64,000 bases of DNA from a virus: the IMG/VR virus record IMGVR_UViG_3300027625_000001; one strand, written 5' to 3'. The position numbers and the translations under genes are program-made. Positions within the stretch are counted from its first letter, which is position 1, and each line of letters starts with the position of its first letter. This document shows positions 37,377 through 38,258 of this stretch, in pieces. A model generated the notes under the pieces. The model saw only the letters and a program-made list of their open reading frames with translations, did no database searches and was not told the DNA's origin.

Positions 37377-37770
37377 ATCGGCATCCGTACGACATGTACA
37401 CGCGCTTGTCGCACCGCGGGCACGTGGGCCACGGTTCGCGCGTGCGCACGGTCCTGATCACGTACTTCGGCAAGTCCTCCTCGCCCGGCTCGTCGTTGAA
37501 CGTCGAACGGAACGACAGGTCGAAGAAGCCGAACTCCCGGATGGTGCTCGCCTGGTACCGGATCCCGAGCCCGTAGCTCGTGGTCCGCTCTTCGATCCAC
37601 GCGAGGTACTGGGCTTCGCACTCGAAGCAGTGGGCATTCGCCACGTAGAGGCCCTCGTGCTTGTCCCAATAGACGCCGCATTCGCTGCGCGTGATGTGGC
37701 GCGCGCGCTCTTCGAGCACGATGCGACCGTAGCAGAAGCGGCAGTTCGTGCGGCCGAGGTTGCGGCTCAT
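37342..37770 (-). CDS. Cys-rich protein (142 aa)
   Basis: Trimmed to ATG 37768-37770 (ATGA overlap); CRFCYG, CFECEA and CPRCDK. Confidence 0.5.
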   Translation of the reverse strand: MSRNLGRTNCRFCYGRIVLEERARHITRSECGVYWDKHEGLYVANAHCFECEAQYLAWIEERTTSYGLGIRYQASTIREFGFFDLSFRSTFNDEPGEEDLPKYVIRTVRTREPWPTCPRCDKRVYMSYGCRCAISGEKHESS

Positions 37771-38258
37771 CGGGGACCTCCCAGCGCGGACTCGACGTAG
37801 GCCGGCAATATGTTCTTGGATCTGTAATTGGCGACGAGCGACGGGTCCAGGTACTGGCACCCGCTGATGACTCTCCTGCACGAGGCCGACCCGCACGTGC
37901 AGTCCATCCGCCACGTGCCGAGGTCGTCGGTGGAGGTCGTCGAGTAATCGAAGCCTAGCTCGGCGCCGGCTGGGATGTCCTCGAGCGCGAAGAGCGTCGC
38001 CCTGTTGTCGTCATCGATCCTCACCGCGCAGTTGGGCTCGCAGCTATGGTTCAAGTAGTCGTCCCCGCTGCGGGAGGCGCCGACGAACGCATCGGGTCCG
38101 ACCTGCAGGATGTCGGCGCCGGCATCCGAGGCCTCTTGGCCGAAGAGCAGCGGGCCCTTGATCTCGAGCACGGCGCTGTCGGCAGGGATGGGTTCCACGG
38201 CGAAGACTCCGCGGCCATGTTTGCACGCTCGGATCTCGAGCCTCATGGGAACTGCCAA
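37767..38258 (-). CDS. SET-domain protein (putative protein lysine methyltransferase)
   Basis: YLNHSCEPNC (NHSC.PN), ELGFDY (EL..DY), post-SET Cys cluster DCTCGSASC. Confidence 0.75.
   Translation of the reverse strand: MAVPMRLEIRACKHGRGVFAVEPIPADSAVLEIKGPLLFGQEASDAGADILQVGPDAFVGASRSGDDYLNHSCEPNCAVRIDDDNRATLFALEDIPAGAELGFDYSTTSTDDLGTWRMDCTCGSASCRRVISGCQYLDPSLVANYRSKNILPAYVESALGGPR

Follow-up and report, generated by a model that had tools for sequence, protein, structure and literature searches.

A stretch of 64,000 nucleotides of viral DNA (IMG/VR record IMGVR_UViG_3300027625_000001, hereafter the window) carries on its minus strand a gene for a 159-aa SET-domain protein that is complete, conserved and accompanied by a post-SET zinc cluster. 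We consider it likely that this protein is an active S-adenosylmethionine (SAM)-dependent SET methyltransferase, that its gene belongs to a coupled chain on a large mobile element, with a huge phage the likeliest candidate, and that it methylates a protein of the host or of the element. An earlier interpretation of this DNA, made without database searches (the sequence-only reading), had named a SET methyltransferase with a post-SET cluster at this position, and three lines of evidence now agree on that identity: the Pfam profile, an AlphaFold2 model with its fold search, and conservation across 88 relatives. The gene and the motifs within it lie as follows.

37767..38246, minus strand: the predicted SET-domain methyltransferase gene, 159 aa, with its ATG at 38246 and its TGA stop at 37767-37769.
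38202..38219, minus strand: HGRGVF, residues 10-15, the GxG loop of SET-N, which aligns to GRGLF of MLL1.
38028..38051, minus strand: NHSCEPNC, residues 66-73, read from the sequence, which includes the Asn-His pair for SAM binding and C69, the first of the zinc cysteines.
37944..37961, minus strand: ELGFDY, residues 96-101, which aligns to ELTYDY of MLL1 and holds the catalytic Tyr101 and, at the Phe/Tyr switch, Phe99.
37878..37901, minus strand: the post-SET motif CTCGSASC, residues 116-123, which aligns to CNCGAKKC of MLL1 and supplies the three zinc cysteines that join C69.
37770..37871, minus strand: the C-terminal extension, residues 126-159 (VISGCQYLDPSLVANYRSKNILPAYVESALGGPR), family-specific, outside the Pfam model and with two predicted helices.

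The Pfam SET model (PF00856) matches the protein with 60.6 bits against a gathering cut-off of 22.4 (E = 2.3e-16), covering profile positions 1-104 of 105 and stopping at residue 101 of the protein. Searches of PDB sequences with phmmer reach Set1, MLL1 and NSD3 at E = 1e-12, in alignments that extend through the post-SET cysteines, and the SET family profile matches MLL1 at 2e-29. A protein-database search with the window protein returned 94 homologues. The Pfam, PDB and database matches together exclude a chance origin of the motifs. All three motifs named earlier (NHSCEPN, ELGFDY and the post-SET CxCxxxxC) can be read directly from the sequence, a match to a SET hidden Markov model (HMM) is present, and the Tyr/Asn core is intact; among NCBIfam models, none matches the SET protein or its neighbours.

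In SET structures such as those of MLL1, DIM-5 and G9a, SAM is bound by the GxG loop together with the Asn-His pair, the tyrosine of ELxF/YDY lines the methyl-transfer pore, and the cysteine of NHSC binds the post-SET zinc together with those of CxCx4C. In an alignment of 88 relatives of the window protein, the basis of all conservation counts given here, G11, G13 and F15 of the first motif are kept in 85, 86 and 84 sequences, and N66 in 87, while H67 and C69 are kept in all 88. E96 is retained in 84 of the 88, and D100 and Y101 in 85 each; the post-SET cysteines C116 and C118 are invariant and C123 is present in 87. The four-ligand zinc signature is complete (C69 with C116-x-C118-x4-C123), as in the SUV39, SET1/MLL and SET2/NSD classes. 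Y101 pairs with the second tyrosine of MLL1 ELTYDY in the PDB phmmer alignment, and Phe99 falls on the first, which we take to be Y3942, the Phe/Tyr switch. Phenylalanine at this switch is associated with di- and tri-methylation. Beyond the zinc cluster, relatives carry the conserved motif ISGxQYLxPxLxxxY in the C-terminal extension.

Structure prediction points the same way. An AlphaFold2 model built from an 88-sequence alignment has a mean predicted local distance difference test score (pLDDT) of 96.2 and a predicted template modelling score (pTM) of 0.90. Its pLDDT is 97-98 over residues 121-150 and averages 85 over the last nine residues, and helices are predicted at residues 135-143 and 149-154. 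Foldseek against the PDB ranks the catalytic SET domains of ASH1L, MLL1/3/4, NSD1-3 and SETD2 as the best matches (probability 1.00, template modelling (TM) score 0.62-0.72, root-mean-square deviation (rmsd) 2.2-4 Å). Model and fold search thus predict that a SET-domain fold is present, a confident outcome for the structure prediction that the earlier interpretation had suggested as a check.

The open reading frame (ORF) was originally placed at 37767-38258. It is real on the minus strand, but its upstream TTG start gives way to the ATG at 38246, which is the better start because three observations agree on it: this ATG forms an ATGA overlap with the TGA stop of the upstream gene, Joint Genome Institute (JGI) gene calls on identical contigs begin there, and the homologues share the equivalent start position. 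No Shine-Dalgarno sequence precedes it. The exact SET protein is present in several peat metagenomes (JGI peat-soil contigs) with its frame at full length, and the G+C content at third codon positions (GC3) is 0.86, similar to that of the neighbouring genes; on these grounds the gene is maintained. The coupling of the gene through ATGA, also claimed earlier, is borne out at both of its ends, in the following setting.

36134..41740, minus strand: a chain of 16 small co-directional genes including SET, most of whose junctions are 4-nt ATGA/GTGA overlaps.
38243..38536, minus strand: the upstream gene, 97 aa with two cysteines and no family match, whose TGA stop overlaps the SET ATG.
37342..37770, minus strand: the downstream gene, 142 aa with nine cysteines in CxxC pairs, zinc-ribbon-like, whose ATG overlaps the SET stop.

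All 16 genes of the chain end in TGA, and the chain is probably one translationally coupled transcription unit. The upstream gene begins with GTG and has a strong Shine-Dalgarno sequence, AAGGAGG, before it. The 4-nt overlaps are common to most junctions of the chain and are not peculiar to SET; they are the general style of this gene array, and therefore nothing in them is specific to SET. Promoter-like and terminator-like sites are no commoner here than in shuffled sequence.

The best sequence and fold matches to the window SET are the Trithorax/MLL (KMT2) and ASH1L/NSD/SETD2 enzymes of eukaryotes. They share with it the GxG loop, NHSCxPN, ELxF/YDY and the CxCx4C zinc site, with similar spacing from the catalytic tyrosine to the post-SET cysteines, at 23-31% identity. 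Unlike these enzymes, the window SET is a stand-alone protein of 159 aa without AWS/pre-SET, Win motif or partner-binding domains; it has a far shorter SET-I insert and a conserved two-helix post-SET tail that MLL lacks. As a candidate for the MLL/SET1 (KMT2) subfamily, it has no Win motif and begins at SET-N, so the resemblance is one of the catalytic core only. Secreted bacterial SET effectors such as Chlamydia NUE and Legionella RomA/LegAS4 act on eukaryotic histones and have a secretion signal and additional targeting domains, for instance ankyrin repeats; the window protein, which comes from peat soil, shows no extra domain in its 159 aa by Pfam.

Closer in build are the small stand-alone SET proteins of prokaryotes, such as Methanosarcina Go1-SET and Burkholderia BtSET, which are about 150-170 aa long, share its domain order, C-terminal tail included, and are annotated 'SET domain-containing protein-lysine N-methyltransferase'. 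Their identity to the window SET is 31-50% among the matches listed. They sit in cellular loci, whereas the window SET sits in a mobile-element gene array and, unlike them, groups weakly with a viral clade. Closest of all are the SETs of huge phages (IMG/VR contigs of 200-520 kb and Logan/ENA contigs of 344-488 kb), which have the same length, 47-53% identity and the shared motifs FDYSTTSTD and ISGxQYL, but which lie in a block running from dUTPase through RNase T to ThyX, none of whose other members occurs in the window. The window SET is most naturally grouped with the small stand-alone SETs of prokaryotes and their huge-phage offshoot. Chlorovirus vSET and the giant-virus SETs are likewise virus-encoded minimal SETs, and offer a functional analogy for host takeover. 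vSET has no post-SET zinc cluster, and the vSET type (a core of about 120 aa, no post-SET) is not matched by the window SET, which has the cluster; viral structures in BFVD reach a TM score of at most 0.57, with 14-24% identity among the top matches. The hosts of the window element have no histones H3/H4.

Beyond near-identical peat sequences, the best homologues are 47-54% identical and of the same length, and two of these lie on contigs of 344 and 488 kb together with dUTPase, RNase T, IF-1, a release factor, ThyX, ribonucleotide reductase and PhoH. Of the 68 SET loci detected in a scan of IMG/VR, 15 are on contigs of at least 200 kb; the nearest relatives (47-53% identity) lie on viral contigs of 90-480 kb. 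Clustering of the flanking ORFs reveals a fixed block around SET common to 18 loci, in the order 224-aa gene, dUTPase, a gene of about 300 aa, a gene of about 115 aa, SET, RNase T, 216-aa gene, IF-1, IMPDH-like gene, ThyX. In this huge-phage clade, a conserved gene of about 80-125 aa always stands directly before SET (7651-7998 in locus L001; also L002-L004 and L010-L023). Its product has a conserved core of about 70 aa and, in many copies, a Lys/Pro-rich N-terminal tail. No Pfam family matches it, and tblastn and HMM searches found no homologue of it in the window. Nor does the huge-phage synteny carry over, as HMMs of 12 conserved neighbour families found no match in the window. A neighbour-joining tree places the window SET, with weak support, as sister to the huge-phage clade, which itself has 98.5% bootstrap support.

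Cellular relatives number at least 539 stretches in the species-representative genomes of GTDB; among the matches listed, the hosts include Spirochaetota, Leptospira, Planctomycetota, Gemmatimonadota, Saccharibacteria, DPANN archaea and Sphingomonas, at 31-50% identity. A further 68 plasmid records, mainly from Burkholderiaceae, carry SET relatives. The family had been called rare in bacteria and phages. For bacteria this was an overstatement. For phages it is accurate as far as PHROGs, where no family matches SET, and 50,697 deposited phage records, where tblastn at E <= 1e-3 found no relative, but the gene recurs in uncultured huge viral contigs. Across prokaryotes the family is patchy rather than rare. 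BFVD holds a few entries named 'SET domain containing protein' from uncultured Caudovirales phage and many from giant viruses. On one plasmid, pMSMB0266 of Burkholderia savannae, SET lies between two H-NS family genes (4213-4533 and 11804-12109 of locus L165), probably by coincidence; as a conserved pairing on plasmids the arrangement was rejected, as this is the one case and four other plasmids do not show it.

The mechanism that we infer for the window enzyme follows solved SET domains. Its architecture would be minimal, with SET-N, a short insert, SET-C, the post-SET zinc cluster and the family-specific two-helix tail. A class V (SET-fold) enzyme of this kind would bind SAM through the G11-x-G13 loop and N66-H67, and zinc held by C69, C116, C118 and C123 would close the substrate channel. 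The substrate lysine would enter this channel, where Tyr101 may assist its methylation, and Phe99 at the Phe/Tyr switch predicts di- or tri-methylation rather than mono-methylation. The enzyme would be expressed as one link in a series of small accessory genes that are translationally coupled, and a protein of the host or of the element would most likely be methylated during infection, our best guess being a basic DNA-associated protein. The suggestion of the sequence-only reading, an effector that modifies histone-like or ribosomal proteins, is a hypothesis. Chlorovirus vSET methylates host H3K27, repressing host transcription, and Chlamydophila SET acts on Hc1/Hc2. Archaeal Go1-SET methylates MC1-alpha (PMC3980110). 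Because of these three precedents, basic DNA-associated targets are favored; the window protein is acidic, and its pI of 4.56 fits a basic substrate weakly. It is conceivable, although we hold it to be rather unlikely, that a eukaryote-like SET lysine methyltransferase serves huge phages, and perhaps also megaplasmids, of soil bacteria as a host-takeover tool, marking nucleoid-associated or translation proteins or their own lysine-tailed DNA-binding proteins, and that it has turned into a fixed core gene in one huge-phage clade. If true, bacterial viruses would have their own counterpart of chlorovirus vSET.

Two small products of the window may be named as candidate substrates, by guesswork.

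8255-8374, minus strand: a 39-aa, extremely basic ORF rich in Arg, Lys and His (MARHHKRKKSTIARERLKNLAHARRVKARRHAHHRHHGR).
59709-60008, minus strand: a protein of 99 aa whose N-terminal tail is rich in lysine.

The element that carries the gene has a G+C content of 62.7%, evenly spread over the window. GC3-guided calling gives about 137 mostly small genes, almost all on the minus strand, which cover 85% of the window. Family scans of 129 window proteins identified, among others, an N6/N4 DNA methylase, a phosphoribosyltransferase, PadR, two Peptidase_S24 proteins, PG_binding_1 and DUF3846, along with a NikA-like match and a ParB-like PHROG. JGI contigs with exact window proteins, all of them from soil and peat metagenomes, reach about 10 kb past each window end and add more small genes on both sides. 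These contigs are 7-37 kb long; scans of IMG/VR and of the JGI metagenome collection for exact 40-mers of the window gave no match. Five features bear on what kind of element this is.

29540-29913, minus strand: tmRNA (Rfam 88.2 bits, ARAGORN), with the tag peptide ANDNAFAPALAA.
29945-30019, minus strand: tRNA-Met(CAT), directly beside the tmRNA (ARAGORN/Rfam).
48873-50297, minus strand: RtcB (Pfam 6.9e-85).
43510-46083, minus strand: a major vault protein (MVP) homologue of 857 aa (Pfam MVP_shoulder 1.5e-29, Vault_3 3.7e-8).
57490-59160, minus strand: an AAA ATPase matching phrog_29662, 'ATP-dependent protease'.

Carriage of a tmRNA by a mobile element has been described for huge phages. The window also encodes an RNA ligase (RLIG1, phrog_14301 at 1.8e-45), and RtcB with this ligase makes an RNA-repair pair of the kind that phages use against tRNA-cleaving host defences. 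The vault homologue matches MVP in the PDB at E = 6.5e-17 over residues 491-785; in the phage collection it has three matching records only, from uncultured phages of 462 and 735 kb, at 40% identity and 94% coverage, with no synteny to the window within 20 kb. MVPs of viruses are already on record from gut phages (bioRxiv 10.1101/2023.11.10.566534). Across 88% of its length, the AAA ATPase shares 35% identity with a protein encoded by the jumbo phages PBS1 and AR9. Taken as a whole, the carrier is quite likely a huge phage.

Several observations weigh against an active protein methyltransferase carried by a phage. On chemistry, the most serious rival is posed by BurB of Burkholderia thailandensis (PDB 9l4t, 9l4v), a related small SET enzyme of bacterial origin whose substrate is free methionine and not a protein (PMC12542666). 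The window SET might by analogy be a small-molecule methyltransferase that converts free methionine to S-methyl-methionine, or that acts on another metabolite, and not on protein lysine. BurB, with 172 aa, is similar in size and its Met S-methylation is proven; it keeps the NH motif (His93) and the equivalent of Y101 (Tyr124; positions as in the paper, PMC12542666), is found with the window protein at E = 7e-8 and with the family profile at 4.7e-19, the latter match reaching into the C-terminal tail, and stands at Foldseek rank 21. However, eukaryotic lysine methyltransferases match the profile better (MLL1 2e-29 against BurB 5e-19), BurB ranks below about 35 of them by sequence, and the Foldseek rmsd is 7 Å to BurB against 2.5-3.5 Å to ASH1L and MLL. 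The four zinc cysteines are near-invariant in the window family, whereas the BurB paper describes no zinc site (PMC12542666). BurB also acts on its free amino acid within a dimethylsulfoniopropionate (DMSP)/malleicyprol cluster that contains burI, burD and burE, while the window SET has no biosynthetic neighbours, with no aminotransferase, decarboxylase or dehydrogenase nearby, and we regard such a metabolic role as improbable. A SET fold that has lost its activity, or that serves a structural purpose only, is more improbable still, to the point that we give it very little weight. What speaks for a pseudoenzyme is Asp45, which stands where MLL1 has the channel tyrosine Y3858 (CYMFRI), and an ATG without a Shine-Dalgarno sequence. 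The Asp45 column is variable across the 88 relatives, the core residues for catalysis, SAM binding and zinc are all in place and conserved, the frame is full-length and identical in several samples, and the ATGA overlap supplies translational coupling.

With an active protein methyltransferase preferred, the target and the carrier are the remaining points of contention. The neighbours of SET in the window are conserved at no other SET locus, bacterial relatives have gene contexts unrelated to one another, and no substrate can be named from the context. One alternative has the enzyme methylate the element's own DNA-packaging, chromatin-like or virion proteins rather than those of the host, and the gene that precedes SET in the huge-phage clade, often with a lysine-rich N-terminal tail, would suit this, as would the very basic or lysine-tailed small proteins of the window, such as those at 8255-8374 and 59709-60008. 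Yet the pre-SET gene has no window homologue, nothing links the window's basic ORFs to SET, and the proposal is guesswork that draws on how genes are ordered in other genomes; we think it unlikely. Roughly as unlikely, or slightly more so, is a megaplasmid or conjugative element on which SET is a passenger that does the job of a chromosomal SET for the host and has no role in infection. No capsid, terminase or tail genes were found by the family scans of the 129 window proteins. ParB_N and PcfJ lie just past the left end of the window (15484-18051 of locus L162, JGI contig Ga0116224_10000345), and the NikA-like match lies inside it with DUF3846, PadR and Peptidase_S24; ParB_N and PcfJ, with the NikA-like and DUF3846 matches, lend it a character reminiscent of plasmids or conjugative elements. 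Proteins of 0.6-1 Mb plasmids (Methylibium, Vibrio, Pseudomonas) resemble the AAA ATPase just as closely as those of jumbo phages do. SET relatives occur on the 68 plasmids, many of them conjugative, and on many bacterial chromosomes, and the union of the window SET with the huge-phage clade has a bootstrap of only 57% in the neighbour-joining tree. Against the megaplasmid stand the tmRNA, tRNA, RtcB and RNA ligase, and a vault homologue whose matches in the phage collection are huge phages only. The nearest SET relatives are on viral contigs, at about 50% identity against 37% for plasmids, and an array of tiny co-directional genes of unassigned function that exceeds 80 kb is more typical of huge phages.

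SET lysine methylation is central to eukaryotic chromatin, and its role in bacteria is largely obscure. The sequence and fold of the window SET are not new, and its gene is an uncharacterised member of a known family. What the window adds is that large mobile elements of soil bacteria carry a complete and conserved SET enzyme, and that a related huge-phage clade holds SET at a fixed genome position. This raises the question of what role SET enzymes play on large bacterial mobile elements. The frequency of the family in prokaryotes implies that a cellular substrate should exist, and with 159 aa and a confident model the window protein is a practical candidate for finding the target of SET methylation in a bacterial cell. 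Our literature search turned up reviews on SET effectors of bacteria and a SET-domain ORF annotated in passing in Stenotrophomonas phage Ps15 (PMC9025141), but no study on the function of a SET enzyme from a phage.

The genes around SET deserve a separate comment. The sequence-only reading had described SET as embedded among Cys-rich small proteins, which is correct for 37342-37770, for 38533-39105 with seven cysteines and for 36514-36972 with ten, but not for the immediate upstream gene, which has only two. Small proteins with CxxC pairs are locally concentrated at 33.5-39.1 kb of the window and have no sequence similarity to one another; the downstream gene at 37342-37770 has a weak, sub-threshold match to Pfam Phage_zn_bind_2 (E = 0.0089). 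A functional module of SET with these neighbours was considered and rejected, as tblastn across 76 SET loci recovered the neighbours on near-identical peat contigs only. Because the pairing is kept at no other SET locus, SET and its Cys-rich neighbours probably form no functional module. The ORF at 36969-37355, the neighbour that had been called Tat-secreted, begins with MNRREALIALAGAPIAAFASPLALA, which resembles a twin-arginine or Sec signal, and has no Pfam match. Membership of an anti-phage defence system was also rejected, with no PADLOC match for SET and nine of its neighbours.

Elsewhere in the window, four pairs of paralogous small genes, 33-54% identical, scattered and all on the minus strand, show duplication inside the element, and one larger protein is conspicuous for its composition.

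1356-1748 and 31678-32286, minus strand: paralogous pair.
20990-21298 and 30082-30612, minus strand: paralogous pair.
46366-46602 and 47180-47446, minus strand: paralogous pair.
6893-7210 and 23008-23289, minus strand: paralogous pair.
12982-13971, minus strand: a 329-aa protein with a long, repetitive N-terminus rich in Pro, Gly and Tyr (PPGPPGYRQPAPPPYAPPQGYGAPPPGYGPPPQGYG...).

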